In this document: in pieces, positions 38,474-52,274 of the stretch | How positions within the stretch are numbered: position 1 is the first letter of the stretch | Layout: the number at the start of each line of letters is the position of its first letter | NCBI GenBank assembly: GCA_046290465.1 | Contig: JBKAGP010000001.1 | Coordinates: 4,960,001 to 5,024,000, forward strand | DNA length: 64,000 nucleotides | From: Planctomycetota bacterium | GTDB taxonomy: Bacteria > Planctomycetota > UBA1135 > UBA2386 | Direction: 5' to 3' | Made by a program: the position numbers and the translations under genes | Notes under the pieces: generated by a model | What the model was told of the DNA's origin: nothing | What the model saw: the letters and a program-made list of their open reading frames with translations, nothing else | Database searches by the model: none

Positions 38474-38869
38474 ATGCGATTCATGGTGATCGACGACGAG
38501 CGGACTGCGCGCACCGAACTGGCGCTGCTGCTCGCACGATGGGGGCGGGTCGAGGAGGCCGAGAGCGCCCAACAGGGACTGACGAAGATCCGCGAGGCGA
38601 TGGCGGCGAGCGATCCGTACTCGCTGGTCTGCGTCGATCTGTGCATGCCCGGCGAGGGCGGTCTGGAGGCGCTGAACGCGATCCGCGACCTCGACGAACG
38701 GTCCGGAACGGACCGCACCGAGGTCGTGATGGTGACGTCGTCCGACGACAAGCACGACGTCATCGAGGCGTTCCGGCAGCAGGCCGATGCCTACCTGGTC
38801 AAGCCGGTCTCGGCGGCGAAGATCGAAGAACTCGTCGCGCGGCTCGGCGGCGGGGAGGGGCAGCGATGA
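38474..38869 (+). CDS. Single-domain response regulator (CheY-like)
   Basis: VIDDE, VDLCMP, VTS, KP; GAGG RBS. Confidence 0.9.
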   Translation: MRFMVIDDERTARTELALLLARWGRVEEAESAQQGLTKIREAMAASDPYSLVCVDLCMPGEGGLEALNAIRDLDERSGTDRTEVVMVTSSDDKHDVIEAFRQQADAYLVKPVSAAKIEELVARLGGGEGQR

Positions 38870-39429
38870 AGGGCGTCATCTTCGTGATCTTCGAGGAGTT
38901 CATCACCGAGAACTGGGGCGCGGAGACGTTCGAAGACCTGCTCGACGACTGCCCGCACGCCGCCAACGAACCGTTCATCGGGCCGAAGTCGTATCCCGAT
39001 GCGTGGATCGTCGACCTGCTGACGGCGGCCTGCACGCGGCTGAACCTGGCGGCGCCCGACGCGCTGCGCGCATTCGGCAGGTTTGCCTTCGGCGGGCTGA
39101 TCTCGCGCTACCCGAACTTCGTCGACGGCGTCGAGCACCCGCGGCAGCTGCTGCTCGCCGTGCACGACATCATCCACGTCGAGGTCAAGAAGCTGATGGA
39201 GGGCGCGACGCCGCCCAACCTCTACTACGACGACGTCGACGGCGATCCCGACACGCTCACCGTGCACTACGAGTCGGCGCGTGGGCTGTGCGCGCTGATG
39301 GAGGGGTTGCTGGAGGGTGCCGCCGAGCACTTCGGCATCGGCATCGAGCACGAGCAGACCGCGTGCACCCACCAGGGCGCCGCGCGCTGCACGTTCGCGC
39401 TGAAGTTCCTGCAGCCGGTGGCGAGCTGA
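38866..39429 (+). CDS. H-NOX heme nitric-oxide/oxygen binding protein
   Basis: MKG.IF N-terminus, proximal His in IIHVEVKKL, PP, YxSxR (YESAR), C-terminal C-x7-C. Confidence 0.93.
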   Translation: MKGVIFVIFEEFITENWGAETFEDLLDDCPHAANEPFIGPKSYPDAWIVDLLTAACTRLNLAAPDALRAFGRFAFGGLISRYPNFVDGVEHPRQLLLAVHDIIHVEVKKLMEGATPPNLYYDDVDGDPDTLTVHYESARGLCALMEGLLEGAAEHFGIGIEHEQTACTHQGAARCTFALKFLQPVAS

Positions 39430-39430
39430 G

Positions 39431-41110
39431 ATGGACGACGCTCGCTGGGAACGTCGGCTCGAGCGAGAGCGGGCGCGCAACGCGGCGCTCGAGAAGGTCG
39501 TCGAGGACAAGACGCGCGAGCTGTACCTGGCCAACGAACGGCTGCGGCAGCACAACGAAGGCCTCGAGGTCATGGTCGAGGAGCGCACCGCGGACCTGCG
39601 CGCGGCGCTGGAGGCCGCCGAGGCGGCCGGTCGCGCCAAGACCGAGTTCCTGGCGCAGATGAGCCACGAGCTGCGCACGCCGCTGCACGGTCTCAACGGC
39701 ACCATCGACGCGTTGACGCGCACCGAGCTCGGCGCCGAGCAGCGTCGCCTGCTCGACCTGTGTCAGGCTTCGGGCGCCCGCCTGTTGCGCGTGATCGGCG
39801 ACGTGCTCGACTTCTCGCGCATCGAGTCCGGCAAGCTGGAGTTCGAAATGCGGCCGGCCAACGTCGGCGAGATCGTGCTGGCGGCAGCATCGTCGTTCGC
39901 GGCGGCCGCCGAGCAGAAGGGGCTGCGCTTGACGCACGCGTGCGTCGGCGACGACGTCTGGATGCGTGCCGACTCGCACCGGCTGGGGCAGGTGCTCGCC
40001 AAGCTGCTCAGCAACGCCGTCAAGTTCACCGAGCACGGCGAGATCGCCTTGCGCGCCGAGGTGCGGCGAGACGACGGACACCTCACGGTCAGCTGGCAGG
40101 TGCGCGACAGCGGCTGCGGCATGACGCCGGAGGCCGCCGAACGGATCTTCGATGCGTTCCGGCAGGCCGAGGCCGCGACCACGCGGCGGTTCGGCGGCAC
40201 CGGGCTCGGGCTTTCGATCGTGCGCGGCATCGTCGAAGCGATGGGCGGCACGATCCGGGTCGAGACCCAGGTCGGCGTCGGCACGACGTTCACGTTCGAG
40301 ACCCGCCACGAGGCTTGTGCGAGCGAGGCGAACGTCGCGCAGCTGGCGCCGTCGGCGCTCGACCTCGGCGGCAAGAAGGTGCTGGTCGTCGACGACCATC
40401 CGATCAACCGCACGCTGTGCGAGACCATGCTGGCGGGCTGCAACTGCGAGCTGCTGTTCGCCGCGAGCGGCGCCGAGGCGATCCTGCAGGTCGCCCGTAG
40501 CGCGCCGGACCTGGTGCTGATGGACTGCCACATGCCGGGCATGTCCGGCCTCGAAGCGACGCGCGCGATCCGGTCGACGGGCTACCAGAACCCGATCCTG
40601 GCCGTGTCCGCCGATGTCACTACCGACAACGCGACCGCGGTCGTGGCCGCCGGCATGCAGGGCATCCTCGGCAAGCCGTTCCGCCAGTCGGACCTGTTCG
40701 AGTCGATCACCGAGCTGCTGGACGGTAGCGGCCGGTTCGCGGCGGCCGTGCCGGAGGACCTCGACGACGCCCTGCCGCTGTTCGCGCCGGACTCGGCGCT
40801 CGAACTGCTCGGCGGCCACCGCGACATGGTCGCGCGGCTCTGCGAGGTCTTCCTCGAGGAGCTGCCGGGCAACCTCGACAACCTGCGGGCCGGCGTCGCC
40901 GACGCCGATGCCGCGGCACAGGCGCAGTTCGCGCACTCGTTGAAGGGGGCGTCCGGTGTGGTCTGTGCGGTGCGCCTGCGCGACCTGTGCGCCGACCTCG
41001 AGGCGAAGGGCCGCGAGGGGCAGTGCCAGCCGGACCGGCTCGACCGGCTCGAGGCGGTCGCGCGGGAGACCGAGGCGGCGCTGCGCGCGTGGCTCGCAGC
41101 GTGCCCGTAG
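39431..41110 (+). CDS. Soluble hybrid histidine kinase (HisKA-HATPase-REC-HPt), H-NOX-associated
   Basis: ERERAR..ALE...EDKTRELY N-terminal coil, MSHELRTP, SNAVKFT, DSGCG, GGTGLGL, MDCHMP, AHSLKG. Confidence 0.93.
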   Translation: MDDARWERRLERERARNAALEKVVEDKTRELYLANERLRQHNEGLEVMVEERTADLRAALEAAEAAGRAKTEFLAQMSHELRTPLHGLNGTIDALTRTELGAEQRRLLDLCQASGARLLRVIGDVLDFSRIESGKLEFEMRPANVGEIVLAAASSFAAAAEQKGLRLTHACVGDDVWMRADSHRLGQVLAKLLSNAVKFTEHGEIALRAEVRRDDGHLTVSWQVRDSGCGMTPEAAERIFDAFRQAEAATTRRFGGTGLGLSIVRGIVEAMGGTIRVETQVGVGTTFTFETRHEACASEANVAQLAPSALDLGGKKVLVVDDHPINRTLCETMLAGCNCELLFAASGAEAILQVARSAPDLVLMDCHMPGMSGLEATRAIRSTGYQNPILAVSADVTTDNATAVVAAGMQGILGKPFRQSDLFESITELLDGSGRFAAAVPEDLDDALPLFAPDSALELLGGHRDMVARLCEVFLEELPGNLDNLRAGVADADAAAQAQFAHSLKGASGVVCAVRLRDLCADLEAKGREGQCQPDRLDRLEAVARETEAALRAWLAACP

Positions 41111-42082: not shown

Positions 42083-42748
42083 ATGCAACAACGCAGTCTG
42101 CTTCGCCCGTCCCTTGCCCTCGTCGCCGTGCTCGGCGCCTGCGCCGGCGGCCCCGACCGCCAGGATGCCCCGATCAAGGTCGAGGAGATGATGACCTGGA
42201 TCGAGAAGGTGCACATCGAGGCCGAGCGCGCGCGCGACGCGATCTCCGACTCGTTCGAACGGCTCAACACGCTCGCCGGTGGCCGCTTCGAGGGCGACTC
42301 CGCCGCGGTCGTCTACGCCCGCTTCGTGCAGTCGATCGACGTCGCCGAACAGCAGGCCAAGCGCTACCGCGACGTGGTCGCGCCGATGGTCGCCTCGGCC
42401 GGTCCGGTGTTCGCCACCTGGCAGGCGGACGTCGAGATGATCCAGTCGGAGCGGCTGCGCCAGCGCAGCGAGATGCGCTTCCAGATCGCCAAGGAGCGCT
42501 ACGACGCGATCGCCAAGGTCGCGGTGCCGGCGCAGGAGCAGTACGACCTGTTCGTGCGGGCGCTGCGCGACCACGCGCTGTTCCTCGGCCACGACCTCAA
42601 CGCCGGCTCGATCGACGACATCCAGGAAGAGGTCAAGCTGGTGGCGCAGAACGCGCTGCAGCTGGACCAGAACCTCGAGTCGACGATGGCCGCCTCGCGC
42701 GCCTACGTCGAGCAGTCGTCGCTGCCCGCCGCCGCACCCGGACGCTAG
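42083..42748 (+). CDS. Alpha-helical coiled-coil lipoprotein (DUF2959-like)
   Basis: Lipobox VLGAC; all-helical; LRDHALFLGHDLNA; its stop abuts the next start. Confidence 0.7.
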   Translation: MQQRSLLRPSLALVAVLGACAGGPDRQDAPIKVEEMMTWIEKVHIEAERARDAISDSFERLNTLAGGRFEGDSAAVVYARFVQSIDVAEQQAKRYRDVVAPMVASAGPVFATWQADVEMIQSERLRQRSEMRFQIAKERYDAIAKVAVPAQEQYDLFVRALRDHALFLGHDLNAGSIDDIQEEVKLVAQNALQLDQNLESTMAASRAYVEQSSLPAAAPGR

Positions 42749-44977
42749 GTGACCCCGACGCTGCTGATCCTGCTGCTGGCGGCGCTCGCGCTCGCCTTCG
42801 CGGCGACCTGGCAGCGCCAGGCAGAACTGCGTCGGCAGCGCGACGCCGTGCGCGAACGCGCCGAGCTGTCCGCGGCGAGCAGCGGTGCGGCGCCGCTGCA
42901 GCTGCCGGTCGTCGACCTGCAGAAGTGCATGGGCTGCGGCACCTGTGTGCGCGAGTGCCCCGAGGAGGGCGTGCTCGCGCTGGTGCACGGCCAGGCGGCC
43001 GTCGTCAACCCTACCGGCTGCGTCGGCCACGCCCGCTGCGTGTCCGAGTGCCCGGTCGACGCGGTGACGTTGACGCAGGGGGACCTGCAGCAGCGCGACG
43101 ACGTGCCGGTGCTCGACGCCGAACTGCAGGCGGTCGGCAACGACGGCCTGTTCCTGGTCGGGGAGATCACCGCGCGCTCGCTGATCCGCGTTGCGGCCGA
43201 ACAGGGGGTGTCGGCGGGCCGCGCGATCGCGCGGCGGTGCGCCGAGCCGGGGCCGGACGGCGTGCTCGACGCCGTCGTCGTCGGCGCCGGACCGGGCGGC
43301 ATCGCCTGCGCGTTGGCCTGCCGCGAGGCGGGCCTCGACTTCGCGCTGCTCGACCAGGAGCCGTTCGTCGGCGGTGCCGTCGCCAAGTATCCGCGCAAGA
43401 AGCTGGTGCTGACCGACCGGATCGACCTGCCGCTGCACGGCCGCCTGCCGCGCCGCGAGTACGAGAAGGAAGAGCTGGTCGCGCTGTGGCAGGATCTCGG
43501 CGAACGGCACGAGCTGCCGTTCGTCGGCGGCGTCGCGTTCGAACATGTCGAGCGGCAGGACGACGGCACGTTCGTCGTGCATACCGACGCCGGCGGCTAT
43601 CGCGCCCGCAACGTCGTGATCGCGGTCGGCCGACGCGGCCAGCCGCGCCGGCTCGGCGTGCCGGGTGAGGACCAGCCACACGTCGCCTTCGGCCTGCTCG
43701 ACGCCGCCAGCTACGCCAACGCGCACTGCGTGGTCGTCGGCGGCGGCGACAGTGCGGTCGAGACCGCGATCGCGCTGGCCGAGCAGCCGGGCAACGACGT
43801 GACGCTGGTCTATCGCCAGGAGGCCTTCTTCCGGCTGCGCAGCAAGAACCGCAAGCGGCTCGAGCAGCAGGTCGCCAGCGGATCCCTGCAGACGATGCTG
43901 GCGACCGACGTGCAGGCGATCGGCGCCGACCACGTCGAGGTCGCGCAGCGGCAGGAGGCCGGCGGCCCGGTGGCGGTGCAGGTGCGCGCCGACCATGTGT
44001 TCGTGCTCGCTGGCGGGGTGCCGCCGTTCGAGCAGCTGAAGCGCAGCGGCGTCTCGTTCGACGCCGCGCTGCATCCAGAGGAGGCCGCGCCGGCGGACGA
44101 CGGCGCGCGCAGCAGCCTGCTGTGGGCGGTCGGCTGTGGCCTGCTGCTGGCGGCGGCGACGCTGGCGTTCGTGCTCTGGCACGCCGACTACTACCTGCAG
44201 GCCTCGGGGCTGCGCGCGGCGCATCCCAAGCACGCGTTCCTGCGGCCGGATCACGGCCTCGGGCTGTGGTTCGGGCTGCTCGCGTCCGGCGCGATGCTGG
44301 CCAACCTCGCCTACCTGCTGCGGCGGCAGCAGCTGTGGGGCGTGCGCTTCGGTCGCCTGTCGACGTGGATGAACGTGCACGTCGCGACCGGCGTGATCGC
44401 CGTGCTGCTGGTGATGCTGCACGGCTCGATGGCGCCGCGCACGACACCCGGTGGCTATGCGTTCTGGGGTCTGGCGGTGCTGCTGCTGACCGGCGCGATC
44501 GGGCGCTGGTTCTACGCCTGGCTGCCGCGGTCCGCGAACGGCCGCGAGCGTCGCCTCGACGAGCTGCGGCAGGACCTGCACGAGCGCAAGCGGCGGCGGG
44601 CGGACGATCCGTTCGCGGCGGCGGCGCGCGCCGAGACGCTCGCGCTGATCGAACGGCGGCAGTGGCACGGCAGCTGGTTCGGTCGCGCGCTGGCGCTGGT
44701 CGGCCTGCAGTGGGACCTGTGGCGCACGCGGCGTCGCATCCGCGATCTCGGTCGCGAGCACGGCGCCGATGCCGCGTCGCTGGCCCGCGAACTGCACGAG
44801 GCGCGGCAGGCGCACGGCACCGCGGTGGCGGTGGCGCACCTCGAGGACCTGCGCGCGCTGCTCGGCACGTGGCGCTGGCTGCACCGCTGGATCGCGCTGC
44901 TGACGGTGCTGCTGGTGGTGGTGCACGCGGTGATCGCGATCGGCCGCGGCGTGTTCCGCGACGGAGGCGGCCTGTGA
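42749..44977 (+). CDS. Membrane-anchored ferredoxin / TrxB-like FAD-NAD(P)H oxidoreductase / di-heme-b membrane-domain fusion
   Basis: N-terminal TM; CMGCGTCVRECP and CVGHARCVSECP; GAGPGG; GGGDSA..YR; C-terminal TMs with two Hx13H pairs. Confidence 0.85.
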   Translation: MTPTLLILLLAALALAFAATWQRQAELRRQRDAVRERAELSAASSGAAPLQLPVVDLQKCMGCGTCVRECPEEGVLALVHGQAAVVNPTGCVGHARCVSECPVDAVTLTQGDLQQRDDVPVLDAELQAVGNDGLFLVGEITARSLIRVAAEQGVSAGRAIARRCAEPGPDGVLDAVVVGAGPGGIACALACREAGLDFALLDQEPFVGGAVAKYPRKKLVLTDRIDLPLHGRLPRREYEKEELVALWQDLGERHELPFVGGVAFEHVERQDDGTFVVHTDAGGYRARNVVIAVGRRGQPRRLGVPGEDQPHVAFGLLDAASYANAHCVVVGGGDSAVETAIALAEQPGNDVTLVYRQEAFFRLRSKNRKRLEQQVASGSLQTMLATDVQAIGADHVEVAQRQEAGGPVAVQVRADHVFVLAGGVPPFEQLKRSGVSFDAALHPEEAAPADDGARSSLLWAVGCGLLLAAATLAFVLWHADYYLQASGLRAAHPKHAFLRPDHGLGLWFGLLASGAMLANLAYLLRRQQLWGVRFGRLSTWMNVHVATGVIAVLLVMLHGSMAPRTTPGGYAFWGLAVLLLTGAIGRWFYAWLPRSANGRERRLDELRQDLHERKRRRADDPFAAAARAETLALIERRQWHGSWFGRALALVGLQWDLWRTRRRIRDLGREHGADAASLARELHEARQAHGTAVAVAHLEDLRALLGTWRWLHRWIALLTVLLVVVHAVIAIGRGVFRDGGGL

Positions 44978-47016
44978 ACCTCAAGGCGCGCTCGATCGTC
45001 GTCGGCGTGGTCTCGGCCGTGCTGGTGCTGACGCTGACGATGGCGGCTGCCGAACGGCAGTCGCCGGGACCGATCTCGACCGTGCACGGCCGCCTCGCCG
45101 AGCTCGACGGAGGGGCTTCGTGTTCGAGCTGCCACGGCGGTTGGTTCGGCGACATGCGCGCGTCCTGCATCGAGTGCCACGAGGAGATCGCCGCCCAACT
45201 CGAGCACGGCAACGGCCTGCACGGCGTGCTCGGCAAGGAGGCGGCGCACCAGTGCGCGACGTGCCACAGCGAGCACCACGGCGAGACGTTCCAGCAGGTC
45301 AACCGGCTGGCGTTCGCCCAGGCCGGCGTGCCCGACCCGGAGGCGTTCGACCACCGCATGATCGGCTTCGACCTCTCCGGTGCGCACGACCAGCTGAAGT
45401 GCGACGCGTGCCACGAGCACGCCTACGCCGAGGTATTGCCGGAGAACCAGCAGCGCTTCCTCGGCCTGCAGCGCGACTGCGGCTCGTGCCACGCCAACCC
45501 GCACGGAGGGCGCATGCAGATGACCTGTGTCACCTGCCATACGCAGTCGGACTTCACGCAGCGGTTCGTGTCGAAGCACGACCGCTGGCTGCGGCTCGAG
45601 GGGGCGCACGGCGGCGTCGACTGCCGTTCGTGCCACCAGGCCGGGAGCGCGCACGCGCTCGAGGCGCTGCGGCCGGGGGAGCTGTCAGCGCGCGGTTGCG
45701 CCGACTGCCACGAGTCGCCGCACGTCGCGGCGTTCGTCGCCGGCAACGGCGGCTGCGCGAGCTGCCACCAGCAGGAGTTCGAGCACTTCGACGACGACCG
45801 TCTGGCGCTGACCGCCGAACAGCACGCGCACAGCGGCTTCGCGCTCGGCGCGCCGCACGACCGGCTCGCGTGCACGGCGTGCCACGACGCGGCGGGCACG
45901 TTCGCCGAACGGCACCCCGGGCGCGCGCCGACCGACTGCCGCGCGTGCCACCAGGATCCGCACGGCGGCCAGTTCGACGGCAGCCCGTTGGCCGAACAGG
46001 ACTGCGTCAGCTGCCACGAACGCACCCACTTCGCACCGCACCGCTTCGACGAGGCGATGCACGCGCGCACGGCGCTGCCGCTCGACGGCCGGCACGCCGA
46101 GCAGCGCTGTGAGGCATGCCACGAGGTGCGGCCGCCCGATTCGGTCCGGCAGTTCCGCGGCACGCCGTCCCGATGTGAGAGCTGCCACGGCGATGCGCAC
46201 GACGACGCGTTCGCGGCGCATCGCCAGCGGCTGGCCGCGCACCCGCGCGGCGCCTGCGCGCAGTGCCACGACACCGACGCCTGGACGAGTCTCGACCACG
46301 CGCGCTTCGACCACGCCGACTGGACCGGCTTCGGCCTCGACGGGGCGCACGCGCAGATCGAGTGCACCGACTGCCATGCGCGCACCGACACCCCGGACGC
46401 GTTGGGCCGGCGCTTCGGCCGGATCCCGGAGCACGACGGCACCGATGCGGCGGGTGACTGCGCGCGCTGCCACGGCGACCCGCACGAGGGCATCTTCGCG
46501 CGCGAGGGTGCCCCGCAGCAGATCGACGGCCGCGGCGGATGCCTGCGCTGCCACGACACCGCGTCGTTCCGCGCGCTGCCGCACGGCTTCGATCACAAGG
46601 CGTTCGCGGGCTTCGAGCTGACCGGCAAGCACGGCAAGCTCGACTGCTCGGCGTGCCACCAGGCGCTCGACGAGGCGACCAGCACCGGGCGGACGTGGGG
46701 CAAGGCCAAGGGGCGGGCGTGCGCCGACTGCCACCAGGATCCGCACGTCGGGCAGTTTGCGCGGTTCGGCAAGACCGACTGCCATCGCTGCCACAAGAGC
46801 GCCAACACGTTCGCGACGCTGTCGTTCCGCCACAACCTGGACTCGCGGTTCCGACTGGGCGAGCAGCACCGCAAGGTCGCCTGCAGTCTCTGCCACAAAC
46901 CCGAGACGAAAGATGGGCACACCTTCGTCCGATACAAGCCGCTGCCGACCAAGTGCGTCGACTGCCACGGTCGGGAAGAAGGAGGAGCGCCGAAACGGAG
47001 ACGGAGGCGCGAGTGA
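44974..47016 (+). CDS. Exported multiheme cytochrome c, 23 CxxCH motifs
   Basis: GGAGG RBS, GTGA overlap, signal peptide; 23 CxxCH counted in 680 aa, arranged in tri-heme repeats. Confidence 0.93.
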   Translation: MNLKARSIVVGVVSAVLVLTLTMAAAERQSPGPISTVHGRLAELDGGASCSSCHGGWFGDMRASCIECHEEIAAQLEHGNGLHGVLGKEAAHQCATCHSEHHGETFQQVNRLAFAQAGVPDPEAFDHRMIGFDLSGAHDQLKCDACHEHAYAEVLPENQQRFLGLQRDCGSCHANPHGGRMQMTCVTCHTQSDFTQRFVSKHDRWLRLEGAHGGVDCRSCHQAGSAHALEALRPGELSARGCADCHESPHVAAFVAGNGGCASCHQQEFEHFDDDRLALTAEQHAHSGFALGAPHDRLACTACHDAAGTFAERHPGRAPTDCRACHQDPHGGQFDGSPLAEQDCVSCHERTHFAPHRFDEAMHARTALPLDGRHAEQRCEACHEVRPPDSVRQFRGTPSRCESCHGDAHDDAFAAHRQRLAAHPRGACAQCHDTDAWTSLDHARFDHADWTGFGLDGAHAQIECTDCHARTDTPDALGRRFGRIPEHDGTDAAGDCARCHGDPHEGIFAREGAPQQIDGRGGCLRCHDTASFRALPHGFDHKAFAGFELTGKHGKLDCSACHQALDEATSTGRTWGKAKGRACADCHQDPHVGQFARFGKTDCHRCHKSANTFATLSFRHNLDSRFRLGEQHRKVACSLCHKPETKDGHTFVRYKPLPTKCVDCHGREEGGAPKRRRRRE

Positions 47017-48686
47017 GCACGACAAGGCATCTGGGCGCGTCGCTGGCCGCGCTGCATCTGGTCTGCGGCGGACTGGCCGCGCAAGGAGAGCGCTTCGAGC
47101 GCCTCGACCTGCGCGTCTCGGCACCGCGACCGAACGGGCAGTGTGTGATCGACCGCGGCAAGCGCGAGAAGGTCGAGGTCGGCGATCGCGTGGTGCTGTC
47201 GCCGCGCGGCGGCCAGCCGTTGACCGGTCGCGTGCTGCAGGTCGAGGACCGCACCGCGCTGGTGCAGCTGCTCGACCCCAAGGCTTCGGTGGCACGCGGC
47301 ACGCGTGGCCACGTGCTGATCCCGCGGACGCGCAAGCAGCAGGCCGGGCCCGATCCGGCCGATCCGGCGGTCGAGCCGCAGCCGCCGACCGGTGAGCCGG
47401 GCGCGCAGGATCCGCCGGGCGACGAGGTCTGGAGGCCGGGCATGCCGTTGCTCGGCCGTCACCGGGCGCCGCGGCCGAACGAACGCGACGCCCAGTTGCG
47501 CGGCCGCCTCTACGGCTCCAGCAACCTGGTCCGCACGCTCGACTCGTTCTCGCAGTCGTACGCGCGCGCCGGTGCCGACGTCGACGTCAACAACATCGAT
47601 GGCGACGGCGGCCGGCTGCGCTTCCACGGCGAGTTCGTGCACAGCGAAGAGGTCTCCGGCAACACCGGCAGCGACCTGCGCATCTACGAGCTCAGCTACG
47701 CGCACGGCGGCACGCGCTTCGACCCGTGGCGCTGGCAGGTCGGCCGCTTCCTGCAGCAGGACATGCCCGAGTTCGGGCTGCTCGACGGCATCGAGGTCGG
47801 CTTCCGCAGCGAGCACGGCGACCGCTTCGGCGCCAGCGTCGGCTACCTGCCCGAGCTCGACGACGACCTCGACAGCCTCGCCGACCTGCAGCTCGCGGCG
47901 TGGTACGTGTTCAACCCGGACGTGTCCGAACGGATCTCGTACGCGATCGGTTACCAGAAGACCTGGCACCGTTGGGACGCGGACCGCGACCTGATCGTCG
48001 CCAAGGCCCGCTATCTGCCGCACAGCGGTTGGGACGTGTCGTCGGCGATCTGGGTCGACATCTACGACAACGACGACAACCTCAAGGACGAGGCGTTCGA
48101 GTTCACGCGCGCCAACCTGTTCGCGACGCGTCGCTGGCAGGACGAGGGCGGCGTCGAGCTGTTCTACGACCACGAGGAGTATCCGGAGCTGCTGCGCAAC
48201 GAGACGCCGCAGACGCTGTTGCCGCAGACGTTGATCGGGGCGCACGTCGATCGCGTGTCGGCGCACCTGTGGACGGGTGGCGGCGACCGGGCGCAGTGGT
48301 TCACGCGCACGACCGGCTGGGTCGACGAGGAGGACGAGGGCTTCGCGTTCGAGCTCGGTGGTCGGCAGGACGACGTGCTCGGTTCGCGCACGCGCTCGGG
48401 TCTGGCGTTGTTCCACGTGAACGCGCAGACCAGCAACGTCACCGGCGTGCGTATCGAGCACGGCGGCGACTACCAGTTCGGTCGCCTCGACCTGCTCTAC
48501 GAACTCGGCTTCGTGCACTTCGACGACCAACCGTCCGATCGCAGCGAGTTGCTGCAGCACCGCTTCGCCGCGCTGGTCTCGACCGGCATGGGGTCGGGTT
48601 GGGACGCGACGTTCACTGGCGACGTCACCGTGTGGGACGAGGAGATCTCGTTCGGCGTCGGCATCTACCTGCAAAAGCTGTTCTGA
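47013..48686 (+). CDS. Outer-membrane beta-barrel (putative cytochrome-associated porin) with N-terminal beta domain
   Basis: GGAGG RBS, GTGA overlap, signal peptide, alternating aromatic/hydrophobic strands, C-terminal GVGIYLQKLF. Confidence 0.78.
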   Translation: MSTTRHLGASLAALHLVCGGLAAQGERFERLDLRVSAPRPNGQCVIDRGKREKVEVGDRVVLSPRGGQPLTGRVLQVEDRTALVQLLDPKASVARGTRGHVLIPRTRKQQAGPDPADPAVEPQPPTGEPGAQDPPGDEVWRPGMPLLGRHRAPRPNERDAQLRGRLYGSSNLVRTLDSFSQSYARAGADVDVNNIDGDGGRLRFHGEFVHSEEVSGNTGSDLRIYELSYAHGGTRFDPWRWQVGRFLQQDMPEFGLLDGIEVGFRSEHGDRFGASVGYLPELDDDLDSLADLQLAAWYVFNPDVSERISYAIGYQKTWHRWDADRDLIVAKARYLPHSGWDVSSAIWVDIYDNDDNLKDEAFEFTRANLFATRRWQDEGGVELFYDHEEYPELLRNETPQTLLPQTLIGAHVDRVSAHLWTGGGDRAQWFTRTTGWVDEEDEGFAFELGGRQDDVLGSRTRSGLALFHVNAQTSNVTGVRIEHGGDYQFGRLDLLYELGFVHFDDQPSDRSELLQHRFAALVSTGMGSGWDATFTGDVTVWDEEISFGVGIYLQKLF

Positions 48687-48694
48687 GGGCCATC

Positions 48695-49348
48695 ATGAAG
48701 ACCAGACGTTTCGGCAAGTGGGCCGCGGCCCTCGTCATGTTGGTCGCCGTCGTGGCGTGCACGATCAGCAACCCGCGCCGCGTCGAGCAGCATCGCTGGT
48801 GGTCGGGCTTCGGCCTGGTGGTGCCGCACGAGTCGTTCCCGGCCGACTGCAGCCTGTGCCACGTCGGCTCGTCGTGGAACAAGCTGGTCGCCGACTTCCG
48901 CTTCGACCACGGCGCGCGCACCGGCGTCGCGCTGCACGGCGCGCACGACCAGGCGGCGTGCCTGCGCTGCCACAACGACCGCGGCCCGGTGTCGGCCTAC
49001 AACGCCAAGGGCTGCGTCGGCTGCCACGAGGACGTGCACTACGGCGAACTCGGCCAGGACTGCGCGCGCTGCCACGACGAGGTGCTGTGGCGCGTGCCCA
49101 ACACGCGGGTCGCGCACATCCACACGCGCCTGCCGCTGATCGGCGCGCACATGCAGGTCGCCTGCCACCGCTGCCACGCCGGCGCGACGGTCACCAACTT
49201 CCGACCGACCGATCCCGACTGCAGCAGCTGCCACCTCAACGAGGCGATCGCGACCACCAACCCGCCGCACCAGGGGCTCGGCTGGACGCAGCAGCGCTGC
49301 GACCGCTGCCACCAGCCGACGGCCTGGCGGCCGGCGCAGGTGCGGTGA
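48695..49348 (+). CDS. Lipoprotein multiheme cytochrome c, 7 CxxCH motifs
   Basis: Lipobox VVAC; CSLCH, CLRCH, CVGCH, CARCH, CHRCH, CSSCH, CDRCH. Confidence 0.9.
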   Translation: MKTRRFGKWAAALVMLVAVVACTISNPRRVEQHRWWSGFGLVVPHESFPADCSLCHVGSSWNKLVADFRFDHGARTGVALHGAHDQAACLRCHNDRGPVSAYNAKGCVGCHEDVHYGELGQDCARCHDEVLWRVPNTRVAHIHTRLPLIGAHMQVACHRCHAGATVTNFRPTDPDCSSCHLNEAIATTNPPHQGLGWTQQRCDRCHQPTAWRPAQVR

Positions 49349-49475
49349 CCTGCGATCCCACACGGAGACCACGGCCCGGTCCCATCTGGAGACGGGCCAC
49401 TCACGGAATGACACAGGAGTGTCGATGACCCCCGAACTCGGAAGGAACGATGCGCTCCCCACGCGGAGTTCGATC

Positions 49476-52274
49476 ATGAAGACTCCTGTACGCAGGTTGG
49501 CGGTCCGTGCCGCGTCCCTGGCCATGGCCGGGGCGGTGCTGGTGCTGTCGATGTTCCCCGCTTCTTGCGTCGACCAGCAGGGGCGCGAGGCGTCCGTGGC
49601 GTCGGCCGAGTCCTGCATGCGCTGCCACAACGGCTCGCTGCACGACGACTACGCCGGACCCGGCCTCGAGAACCCGCACCCGTTCCCCGGTGATGCCGAG
49701 ATGCTGCGCTGCACGGCGTGCCACGGCGGCAACCCCAATGGCGCCGACGCGGCCACCAGCCACGTGCCGCCGCCGCCGTCGATCGGGGACCGTGACTTCC
49801 AGGATCAGAACGCGCAGGCGTACTTCAACAAGCTGACGCTCGCGGGCATCGACAAGGTCGACGACTACGAGGTCGACGGCGTCACCTACACCGGCCTGCA
49901 GTACCTGCAGTTCCTCAACCCGTCCGACCTGCGCGTCACCAGCATCGGCCAGGGCTGCGGCGAGTGCCACCAGCCGCACGCGACCGCGTCGATCCGTTCG
50001 CCGATCGGCAGCGAGATGGGCATCTTCTCGGGCGCCTTCTACGCGGTCGGCATGGCCAACGCGATCGCCGCGCACCAGGGACTGTTCGAGGACACGGCCG
50101 CCGACTACGGCTGGCGGGCGGTCGTCGATCCGGCCCACGTGCACGATCCCAACGCCGACGGCAAGGTCGGCGAACTGCTCGAGGCGCCGGTCTGGAGCTC
50201 GCGCGAGGACCAGGGCCCGGACTTCCTGTTCCGCAACCAGGACTTCGTCGTCGCCAACCTGGTCAACGACGTCAACGCCGACGGCTCGGTGGTCAGCGGC
50301 TCGCGGCTGGCCAAGCTCTACCAGGAACAGGTCGCGTTCACCTGTGGCGACTGCCACCTCGGCAGCAGCGGCGCCAACAACCGCTACGGCGACTTCCGGC
50401 CGTCGGGCTGCGCGGCGTGCCACATGCCGTACAGCCTCGACGGCCGCAGCCGCAGCCAGGACCCGAACGTGCCGAAGTTCGAGCCGCTCGACCCGGACGA
50501 CATCGACGACCCCGAGCGCGCCCACGTGCGTTCGCACCGGATCCGTTCGGTGGCGCGCACGCTGACCAACGGCACGCAGGTCGAGGGCATCGACGACTAC
50601 ACCTGCGCCGGCTGCCACCAGGGCAGCAACCGCATGGTCATGCAGTACTGGGGCATCCGCCTCGACCAGAACCAGGACGTTCGCCGCGGCCACCAGTACC
50701 CGGCCAACCCGGTCGACTTCGAGACCACGCGCAACGACACGCGCCTGTTCGACCCGCAGGTCGGCAACAACACGTTCAACGGGCGCAACCACCGTCAGTA
50801 CCTCCTGATGGAGGACTACGACGGCGACGGCCGTGACGACACGCCGGCCGACGTGCACTACGACGCGGGCATGGGCTGCGTCGACTGCCACGGCACCGTA
50901 GACCTGCACGGCGACGTCGCCGCGGCCAACAACGGCGACATCGTCAGCCGCATGACGCACGCCGTGACGATCAAGTGCGAGGACTGCCACGGCTCGGCGA
51001 CGGCCTACGCGCCGACCACGGTCGGCGAGAACTACGACGGCGAGACCGTCACGCTCGCGGTCGACAGCGCCGGCAACCCGCTGCGCCACGTCGAGGTGGA
51101 CTCGAACGGCGACTACTGGCTGACCAGCAAGGTCGACGGCCGCCGCCACTACGTCTCGCAGACGCTCGACGTGATCGTCGACAACGGCCGGACCAACCCG
51201 GTCACCGGCACGCCGATCTACACGCAGCACGGCTCGTTCGCGATGGGCCGCGACGACAACGACCCGGCGACCGGCATCGGTTCGCAGCAGACCGGCAGCC
51301 CGCACGCCGGCTTCAGCCACATGGACTCGATGCACTGCGCGTCGTGCCACAGCGCCTGGAGCAACTCGTGCGTCGGCTGCCACCTCGAAGGCGAGTACAA
51401 CGAGGGCAACAACTTCAGCAACATCACCGGCGAACGGATCGCGTTCCGCGAGCGCTTCGCCGAGTTCGTCTACCAGTCGCCGATCCCGTTCACGCTCGGC
51501 ATCGGGCCGGACAACGACATCCGCACGACCGCGGCCAACACCAAGGTGTTCTTCCGCTACCGCGACATCAACGGCGACCGCACGCCGGTGTTCGCGTTCT
51601 CGGACCGCAACGGCCAGGGCGGCAACACGGTCGCGCGGCCGACGCCGTCGCTGGGCCACAACGCGCTGATGGCGCACTCGATCCGCGGCCGCGTCAGCGC
51701 GACCAACGAAGGGCCGCGCTCGTGCGTCGCGTGCCACCTGACGAACGACGCGATCACCAACTACGGCTCGCAATACGCGGCGTTCCGGACGGCGCTCTAC
51801 GCCAACGACTACGGCAACCTCGACTACAACCTGCTCAGGCAGCACATCGGGCAGAACCCGGGTAACCAGCTCGACTCGCCGTTCTTCGTGCACATGGTCG
51901 CGGGCCTCGGCACCGGCCTCTACCTGTTCGACCAGAACGGCGCCGCGCAGAACCCGCTCGACGACAACGACGATCGCTACGGCAGCGACGGCGCTGCGCC
52001 GAACACCTACTTCAACCCGGCCGACGTGCGTTACGACCTCGACCGCGTGGTCGAGACCAACGGTGTCGCCAACGGCTCGAGCAGCATCCCGATGAACCAG
52101 CCGTTCCTCGGTCCGCTGCGCCGCGACGGGGCGCTCGACCCCAACATGACCGGGCCGCTCGGCACCACGCTGGCGCTGCGCCTGGCTGACCCGGCGACCG
52201 GCATCGTGCTCAACAGCTGGGTGGACGCGGACCGCACGGTCAAGGGCGACGCGAGCAACGTGATCGATCCGTAG
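49476..52274 (+). CDS. Large exported (probably lipoprotein) multiheme cytochrome c, 11 CxxCH motifs
   Basis: GGAG RBS; signal ending PASC; 11 CxxCH in 932 aa; D/N/G/T-rich inter-heme segments. Confidence 0.9.
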   Translation: MKTPVRRLAVRAASLAMAGAVLVLSMFPASCVDQQGREASVASAESCMRCHNGSLHDDYAGPGLENPHPFPGDAEMLRCTACHGGNPNGADAATSHVPPPPSIGDRDFQDQNAQAYFNKLTLAGIDKVDDYEVDGVTYTGLQYLQFLNPSDLRVTSIGQGCGECHQPHATASIRSPIGSEMGIFSGAFYAVGMANAIAAHQGLFEDTAADYGWRAVVDPAHVHDPNADGKVGELLEAPVWSSREDQGPDFLFRNQDFVVANLVNDVNADGSVVSGSRLAKLYQEQVAFTCGDCHLGSSGANNRYGDFRPSGCAACHMPYSLDGRSRSQDPNVPKFEPLDPDDIDDPERAHVRSHRIRSVARTLTNGTQVEGIDDYTCAGCHQGSNRMVMQYWGIRLDQNQDVRRGHQYPANPVDFETTRNDTRLFDPQVGNNTFNGRNHRQYLLMEDYDGDGRDDTPADVHYDAGMGCVDCHGTVDLHGDVAAANNGDIVSRMTHAVTIKCEDCHGSATAYAPTTVGENYDGETVTLAVDSAGNPLRHVEVDSNGDYWLTSKVDGRRHYVSQTLDVIVDNGRTNPVTGTPIYTQHGSFAMGRDDNDPATGIGSQQTGSPHAGFSHMDSMHCASCHSAWSNSCVGCHLEGEYNEGNNFSNITGERIAFRERFAEFVYQSPIPFTLGIGPDNDIRTTAANTKVFFRYRDINGDRTPVFAFSDRNGQGGNTVARPTPSLGHNALMAHSIRGRVSATNEGPRSCVACHLTNDAITNYGSQYAAFRTALYANDYGNLDYNLLRQHIGQNPGNQLDSPFFVHMVAGLGTGLYLFDQNGAAQNPLDDNDDRYGSDGAAPNTYFNPADVRYDLDRVVETNGVANGSSSIPMNQPFLGPLRRDGALDPNMTGPLGTTLALRLADPATGIVLNSWVDADRTVKGDASNVIDP

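Follow-up and report, generated by a model that had tools for sequence, protein, structure and literature searches.

A six-gene porin and multiheme cytochrome cluster of a planctomycete with a predicted NADPH-linked inner-membrane entry module

Genes of the cluster and their host

Six plus-strand genes, g1 to g6, lie at 42083-52274 of a 64,000-nucleotide stretch of DNA (the window) from a Planctomycetota bacterium (assembly GCA_046290465.1, contig JBKAGP010000001.1, positions 4,960,001 to 5,024,000), and they carry 23+7+11 = 41 CxxCH motifs for c-type heme (Table 1). The cluster is read here as a putative electron conduit across the cell envelope. The TAG of g1 and the GTG of g2 abut at 42748/42749, GTGA overlaps join g2 to g3 at 44974 and g3 to g4 at 47013, 8 nucleotides separate g4 from g5 before 48695, and 127 nucleotides separate g5 from g6. 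The six co-directional genes, their junctions and the heme counts, as described in an earlier note on this DNA, were all reproduced from the sequence. Only three CxxCH motifs occur outside the cluster in all six frames of the whole window, and 1000 shuffled versions of g3 contained 0.28 on average and 3 at most, against 23 in the real protein. A scan for sigma-70 promoters and terminators found none. From three RNA runs, 0, 0 and 1 reads fell on the locus, too few to speak on expression, and no RNA data set containing the locus was listed.

The host genome is a single contig of 6.59 Mb with 70% GC, and the DNA data sets containing this DNA are labelled as algae, aquaculture, marine and coral metagenomes. 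Three matches to heme-copper oxidases were found in it. The MtrB/PioB and NapC/NirT (CymA) families were not found in this genome, which is 94% complete.

Table 1. Genes of the cluster, with positions in the window and lengths in amino acids (aa)
Gene	Position	Strand	Length	Features and predicted role
g1	42083..42748	+	221 aa	DUF2959 helical lipoprotein, accessory; PF11172 E 1.6e-20
g2	42749..44977	+	742 aa	Predicted entry module: ferredoxin, permuted TrxR/YpdA-type flavin adenine dinucleotide (FAD) domain, diheme-b domain
g3	44974..47016	+	680 aa	23 CxxCH; putative periplasmic wire (location read from N-terminal helix)
g4	47013..48686	+	557 aa	C-terminal Phe; predicted outer-membrane porin
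g5	48695..49348	+	217 aa	7 CxxCH; lipoprotein
g6	49476..52274	+	932 aa (from ATG)	11 CxxCH; likely lipoprotein, candidate terminal reductase

The predicted entry module, wire and porin

The AlphaFold model of g2 (predicted local distance difference test, pLDDT, 86.9) begins with an anchor helix, which is followed by a ferredoxin domain, a flavin domain of the thioredoxin reductase (TrxR) fold and five further membrane helices. Homologues were compared in an alignment of 93 rows, the window protein and 92 of 120 matches. The membrane domain contains the motif WX3HX13H twice, as W540-H544-H558 and W708-H712-H726, and every one of these residues is invariant in 93/93 rows, which bears out the Hx13H pairs pointed to earlier; the four His ligands are also conserved in 120/120 stand-alone membrane proteins of the Bacteroidota type. 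The two pairs sit on helices 3 and 5, as in the ferric reductase domain, whose model PF01794 scores 16.4 and 21.5 bits, under the Pfam cut-off of 28. Helix 4 carries TGAIG, with Thr in 92/93 rows, and the stand-alone proteins carry SGxxG there in 120/120. Y481, Y482, R489 and H495 are conserved in a periplasmic loop of the domain. Matches to the membrane domain in the Atlas reached at most 0.89 by features and serve as leads only.

The flavin domain bears the NADPH (reduced nicotinamide adenine dinucleotide phosphate) signature GGGDSA with R356 and R362; GGG(D/N)xA and both Arg are invariant in 93/93. No CxxC was found at the TrxR position, and among the commonest residues of the 93 rows there is no Cys at 311-325. 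The 120/120 Bacteroidota-type stand-alone flavoproteins likewise have the NADPH signatures without CxxC (0/120). In TrxR proteins a redox-active CxxC precedes the NADPH motif; by what is established for them, the NADPH signature without CxxC suggests NADPH use and, instead of thiol chemistry, a partner that takes electrons one at a time. The fold-closing motif (138-157) precedes the Rossmann domain, a circular permutation common to 120/120 Bacteroidota-type relatives. The closest solved structures are YpdA and TrxR-type ferredoxin:NADP+ reductases (FNRs), with YpdA 7a76 matched at Z 23.3 and a root mean square deviation of 3.6 A over 262 residues; these matches, from searches with the whole of g2, fall on the flavin domain. 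The YpdA/Bdr model TIGR04018 gives 138.8 bits, under its cut-off of 339.9. Fold, NADPH signature and lack of a dithiol are thus shared with YpdA/Bdr and TrxR-type FNRs, whereas g2 is permuted and fused to its own ferredoxin and membrane domain.

One Fe-S site of the ferredoxin domain has four Cys and the other three, the missing fourth (position 94) being replaced by His in 68, Ile in 14 and Val in 11 of the 93 rows; in the Bacteroidota-type flavoproteins both sites have three Cys. The three-Cys site of g2 would therefore hold a [3Fe-4S] or His-ligated cluster. Accordingly, of the flavo-FeS-cytochrome b entry point proposed earlier, the NADPH-type flavin and the two-heme-b pattern stood, while its [4Fe-4S] assignment was half right. 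On a positive-inside reading, the flavin and Fe-S domains would be cytoplasmic, with one heme b at each membrane face. The flavin/Fe-S module and the diheme domain form one chain, and by implication they are directly coupled. NOX, SpNOX, MsrQ and MsrQ-like proteins likewise lead electrons from NAD(P)H over a flavin to two b hemes across the membrane, and their His pairs, too, sit on helices 3 and 5. MsrQ (PMC12525009) and MsrQ-like proteins with NAD-binding domains (PMC8238504) are a precedent for NAD(P)H-fed members of the ferric reductase family, as far as the available parts of the sources go. In contrast to that superfamily, the flavin domain of g2 is of TrxR type, N-terminal, permuted and equipped with Fe-S relays, and its electrons would leave to a multiheme wire and a porin; its PF01794 score also stays under the cut-off.

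The presumed wire, g3, has one heme per 29.6 aa and 40 spare His, and its relatives have 20-29 hemes. Its N-terminal hydrophobic helix, conserved among homologues when read by eye, is probably an uncleaved inner-membrane anchor. Against the DmsE/MtrA decaheme model TIGR03508 it scores 51.6 bits, under the cut-off of 192.

The g4 model (pLDDT 85.1) shows a signal-like helix, a small beta domain (28-104) and a barrel (161-556) of 22 strands, as counted from its DSSP list, with no plug; the diameter is put at about 40 A by geometry (backbone, with assumed shear numbers rather than a measurement on the model), between those of 20- and 26-stranded barrels. The barrel ending in Phe that the earlier note described is thus predicted to be wide and plug-less, and its structural matches are outer-membrane barrels. 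All matches listed are membrane barrels, none standing out; MtrB ranks 37 (Z 12.3) amid generic barrels, and the fold search therefore decides nothing on kinship. The MtrB/PioB porin family PF11854 has no match in g4 or in the host genome. The g4 family counts 2196 representatives at E<=1e-3, and 125/150 homologues end in Phe. When the barrel (150-557) and g5 (22-217) were predicted as a complex, the score of 0.27 against a mark of 0.32 decided neither way. The small beta domain (window 47094-47324) weakly matches the MreC core and looks duplicated in homologues P0241 and P0328; a docking site for the periplasmic wire is possible there.

Outer module and conservation across genomes

The lipobox Cys22 of g5 is invariant in 21/21 homologues. 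From its homology to the 40-heme protein of Emticicia, g5 is read as the conserved N-terminal core of an outer cytochrome family whose relatives have 10-40 hemes. In g6 the lipobox Cys31 is invariant in 20/20 homologues and the protein is likely a lipoprotein, with a low heme density of 85 aa per heme. No close solved structure for g6 was found. It scores 63.3 bits against the ExtM model NF040943, whose curated cut-off is 800, and ExtM-named clusters are among its neighbours in the Atlas, at 0.93; an assignment as ExtM was rejected, the resemblance being weak and the score far under the cut-off. The acidic stretch EDYDGxGRDD of g6 (window 50811-50840) is invariant and resembles a calcium-binding loop. 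Homologues of g1 have a lipobox-like Cys.

The outer parts vary together. With entries left out that have less than 3.5 kb downstream and no g6, g6 accompanies 46/47 short g5 (7-10 hemes) and 0/41 long ones (13-38 hemes; two loci counted twice). It is missing in 28/49 GTDB entries and 14/39 metagenome entries, where g5 has 13-38 dense hemes, and in the GTDB set g1 is found in 19/21 entries with g6 and 0/28 without. A rapid tree of the porin with 46 rows puts the fused g2 form on one side of a branch with 99% support in the Shimodaira-Hasegawa-like approximate likelihood-ratio test (SH-aLRT), and on it the g6/g5 pattern comes down to three changes, which can be taken as a loss and two gains. 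A replacement of g5's outer extension by g6 is therefore suggested, though with only these three changes the statistics are not strong.

A periplasmic end point, as in the Geobacter Ext cluster, would give these parts another meaning: g5 and g6 would face the periplasm, the barrel would admit a small substrate such as an oxyanion, polysulfide or chelate for g6, and no true extracellular electron transfer would occur. The ExtM-like character and enzyme-like heme density of g6 fit such an arrangement, and the accessible parts of the Geobacter literature tie the Ext porin to selenite/tellurite reduction, report ExtM in membranes and in the periplasm, and let the selenoenzyme neighbouring ExtM act in the periplasm. 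It is nevertheless judged improbable, given a wide, plug-less barrel and g6-less entries in which a g5 of 13-38 hemes (40 in Emticicia) offers more hemes than feeding an enzyme beside a 23-heme wire would need.

Conservation was followed in a phylum sample of 401 planctomycete genomes, in which g2 had 80 matches at E<=1e-30; 77 places of its ferredoxin and FNR-type module (Fd-FNR) were kept at E<=1e-70, in 54 genomes. Among 32 fused loci fetched, g2, a 23-26-heme gene and the porin follow in that order in 30, and all six genes are present in 16; the exceptions are L053, which is rearranged, and L067 (L067:2745-5129, G240:C2), where a fused g2 stands as an orphan, interrupted by an internal TAG stop and lacking cytochrome genes in its surroundings. 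All split loci fetched (8/8) contain Fd-FNR, membrane protein, 20-26-heme, 10-24-heme and porin genes. A model of the porin found 68 places in 45 genomes, with the Fd-FNR module within 8 kb at 65/68 and present in 45/45 of the porin-bearing genomes. Of these places, 35/68 belonged to the model's own alignment and had been picked because they lie beside g2; outside it the module is nearby in 30/33, or 31/33 counting a frameshifted copy. In the reverse direction, a porin at threshold lies beside 65/77 Fd-FNR places.

Gene order is shuffled among lineages, and the five parts still stay together. Metagenome loci (n=80) show the same layouts, many of them cut by contig ends; searched as families, the two halves of g2 account for 7331 and 7998 of 8000 scored candidates, and named matches include Aquirufa and Saprospiraceae. 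Plasmid pEMTOL02 of Emticicia oligotrophica DSM 17448 (L077:7971-19769, NC_018749.1) carries a five-gene split form with ccsA: a membrane protein of 281 aa, an Fd-FNR of 440 aa, two cytochromes with 23 and 40 hemes, and a protein of 538 aa that matches the porin model (E 2e-30). The synteny that had been suggested for testing is thus widespread, in the phylum sample, in metagenomes and in Emticicia. The host itself has a four-gene paralogue without g1 and g6 (L005:6926-14533, G000:C1:4844937-4852532), consisting of a fused g2 (45% identical), a 23-heme cytochrome, a porin (28%) and a 22-heme g5 lipoprotein.

Several observations stand beside these counts. At L183:1-16132 (G240:C11), cytochromes of 26, 38, 17 and at least 56 hemes lie in a row and g2 is apparently frameshifted. 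A gene resembling glutamyl-tRNA reductase by eye (L074:2219-3664) lies between porin and g6 in a split-type cluster, a hint at coupled heme supply. Just upstream of the cluster (window 38474-41110) are a response regulator, an H-NOX protein and a hybrid histidine kinase; H-NOX was rejected as a part of the system, lying beside the cluster in 0/124 other loci, and so were upstream metallo-beta-lactamase and DTW genes, kept only in the closest relatives. A third redox cluster of the host (L006:60-17216, G000:C1:2614-2631 kb) encodes a 560-aa barrel-like protein unrelated to g4, an FHA protein, a WX3HX13H membrane protein with SGLLG, a cyclic-nucleotide (cNMP)-binding/Fe-S protein, an 823-aa FAD/FHA protein, 15- and 17-heme cytochromes and a 1351-aa 10-heme g6 homologue with LVIVD repeats; its FHA domains suggest phospho-regulation of redox proteins. 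The host also has a selenocysteine tRNA (G000:C1:5914319-5914417).

Relation to known conduits and probable direction of electron flow

The cluster had been taken for an architecture without a characterised counterpart. That claim did not hold up, as the architecture is largely that of PCC3, a cluster predicted by He 2017 (PMC5566968), in the available part of which it comprises an inner-membrane WX3HX13H protein proposed as a quinone-active diheme cytochrome b, a periplasmic cytochrome of about 21 hemes, a porin and an outer cytochrome. PCC3 is reported, in sources accessible in part, as present and expressed in iron oxidisers, with an outer cytochrome of 34 hemes at the median and 10-35 in Gallionellaceae. 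The likeness extends to a five-helix membrane protein with two WX3HX13H motifs, a cytochrome in the periplasm that has about 21-27 hemes, one per about 26-30 aa, a porin for which 22 strands are also predicted in Leptothrix cholodnii, and a second, variable outer cytochrome. On helix 4, PCC3 has SGXXG where g2 has TGAIG, which agree if read as [S/T]GxxG. The gene order is shared by the split relatives, with the membrane protein first, then the periplasmic and the outer cytochrome, and last the porin. By contrast, the cluster described here has a ferredoxin/NADPH flavin module, fused or adjacent; the roughly 300-aa stand-alone membrane protein of PCC3 is fused into g2 and stands alone only in the split relatives; the outer cytochrome is cut to 7 hemes and joined by the 11-heme ExtM-like lipoprotein and DUF2959; and the hosts are Planctomycetota and Bacteroidota instead of Proteobacteria. 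The cluster may work like PCC3. Membership in PCC3 is not claimed, because two defining features, the stand-alone membrane protein and the large outer cytochrome, fail here and the comparison is one of motifs, heme counts and description rather than of sequence homology.

Other systems lie farther off. PCC4, reported in Planctomycetes, has periplasmic cytochromes of 4, 5 and 10 hemes, instead of 23, 7 and 11, and no outer one, according to the accessible part of He 2017 (PMC5566968); in its PCC4 and Table S6 clusters the same membrane-protein motif has Fe-S genes and redox proteins of 412-805 aa without annotation as neighbours, whereas those of Table S6 mostly lack a porin, and their 412-425-aa redox proteins may be this Fd-FNR. 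The Verrucomicrobia octaheme and Bacteroidetes six-cytochrome clusters are set apart by their descriptions, as far as these were available. MtrCAB and Geobacter Pcc/Ext likewise join a barrel to periplasmic and outer multihemes, and g6 is weakly ExtM-like, but here there is no MtrB/PioB family match and the heme counts differ, also from OmbB-OmaB-OmcB. Those conduits are fed with quinol through separate CymA, ImcH or CbcL. An NAD(P)H flavoprotein in such a cluster was not found described in the literature searched, which left most subscription journals uncovered.

By a slight balance of probability, the cluster is an NADPH-driven, outward, envelope-spanning reductase that serves as a redox valve or for surface reduction in an oxygen-respiring host. 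In g2, the FAD of the cytoplasmic TrxR-type domain would accept a hydride from NADPH, and single electrons would run through the two Fe-S clusters, of which one is probably [4Fe-4S] and the other [3Fe-4S] or His-ligated, to a heme b on the cytoplasmic side (H544/H712) and on to one on the periplasmic side (H558/H726), as in NOX and ferric reductase proteins. From there, the anchored g3 would carry them across the periplasm, hemes of g3 and g5 would lead them through the lumen of the porin, and g6 would hand them to an external acceptor such as Fe(III) chelates or quinone-like organics. Sequences and models show which domains are present, the invariant ligands, the signature for NADPH, the barrel, the lipoboxes and the co-conservation, whereas topology, cofactor binding, order and direction of transfer, surface exposure and acceptor are what these features suggest.

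Outward transfer runs from the negative to the positive side and would be pushed by the membrane potential, spending it. As outward flow spends the proton-motive force, a redox valve that disposes of surplus NADPH, or a surface reductase supplied with strong reductant, would be expected rather than energy-conserving respiration of the Shewanella/Geobacter type. With textbook values of -0.34 V for NADPH and 150 mV for the membrane potential, transfer is favourable even onto a heme of -0.40 V (-8.7 kJ per mol e-). TrxR-type FNRs are reversible, and an inward conduit would use a donor outside the cell, for instance Fe(II), reduced humics or a cathode, to make NADPH; the iron oxidisers that express PCC3 lend it some colour. 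Such reverse running, raised in the earlier note, is regarded as very improbable: against the redox gap and membrane potential, NADP+ reduction is uphill by about +30 (reduced anthraquinone disulfonate, AQDS) to +47 kJ per mol e- (an iron couple at 0 V) on textbook potentials for ordinary donors, and the cluster encodes no energy-coupling subunit.

Several points weigh against the outward, NADPH-fed reading. The redox potentials are textbook values rather than those of these proteins, the lipoboxes of g5 and g6 fit either face of the outer membrane, and the conservation counts are among kin and not independent. At the search threshold, 12/77 Fd-FNR places have no porin; eight of these, when fetched, yielded two divergent porins, one contig-end fragment and five undecided cases, and a ninth is the L067 orphan with its internal stop. 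Furthermore, the accessible parts of Hoover 2023 (PMC10734462) and the CL21 paper describe proteobacterial PCC3 as four genes, with function predicted only and no flavoprotein, and by analogy a membrane protein of this type may work without an Fd-FNR partner.

These last points bear on a quinone-linked junction, in which the diheme-b domain would pass electrons to or take them from the quinone pool, the wire would be fed from or feed the respiratory chain, and the NADPH module would be one input, for example by NADPH:quinone reduction on the side of the cytoplasm. A binding site for quinone may exist in the diheme domain, by analogy with the same motif set in the quinone-active cytochrome b hypothesis of He 2017 (PMC5566968) and with MsrQ of the same superfamily, which holds ubiquinone (PMC12525009), both sources being available in part; the four conserved loop residues of g2, which have no assigned role, could accommodate such a site. 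Nevertheless, the NADPH module is kept beside nearly every sampled family porin and is fused in one large clade, and in the accessible part of the MsrQ study (PMC12525009) the quinone seems to take up electrons rather than donate them. A quinone-linked junction is therefore considered unlikely, if less so than the periplasmic end point.

The NADPH-fed outward reductase may also represent something broader. It is conceivable, at somewhat less than even chances, that a widespread undescribed class of extracellular conduits exists in lineages that respire oxygen (Planctomycetota, Bacteroidota and, probably, Gemmatimonadota, Acidobacteriota and Myxococcota), wired directly to cytoplasmic NADPH with no quinone step and with the membrane potential driving the flow outward. 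It would serve redox balance or reductive chemistry at the surface rather than respiration, as a bacterial NOX-like transmembrane reductase extended to the surface by a 30-60-heme wire.

In Gram-negative bacteria, the conduits that have been characterised draw on the quinone pool, and their role is in anaerobic respiration or the oxidation of metals. The conduit type itself was predicted in 2017 as PCC3; new are the near-constant NADPH/Fe-S front end, its wide spread among aerobic lineages and an outer module that can be swapped. The NADPH module is a concrete candidate electron source for the PCC3-type membrane protein. The question can be tested directly in the cultured Emticicia oligotrophica DSM 17448, because the five-gene form sits on its plasmid pEMTOL02 beside a cytochrome c maturation gene. 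If the conduit is fed by NADPH, the same wiring would be put to a different use, and extracellular electron transfer would reach abundant aerobic heterotrophs of algae and fresh water.

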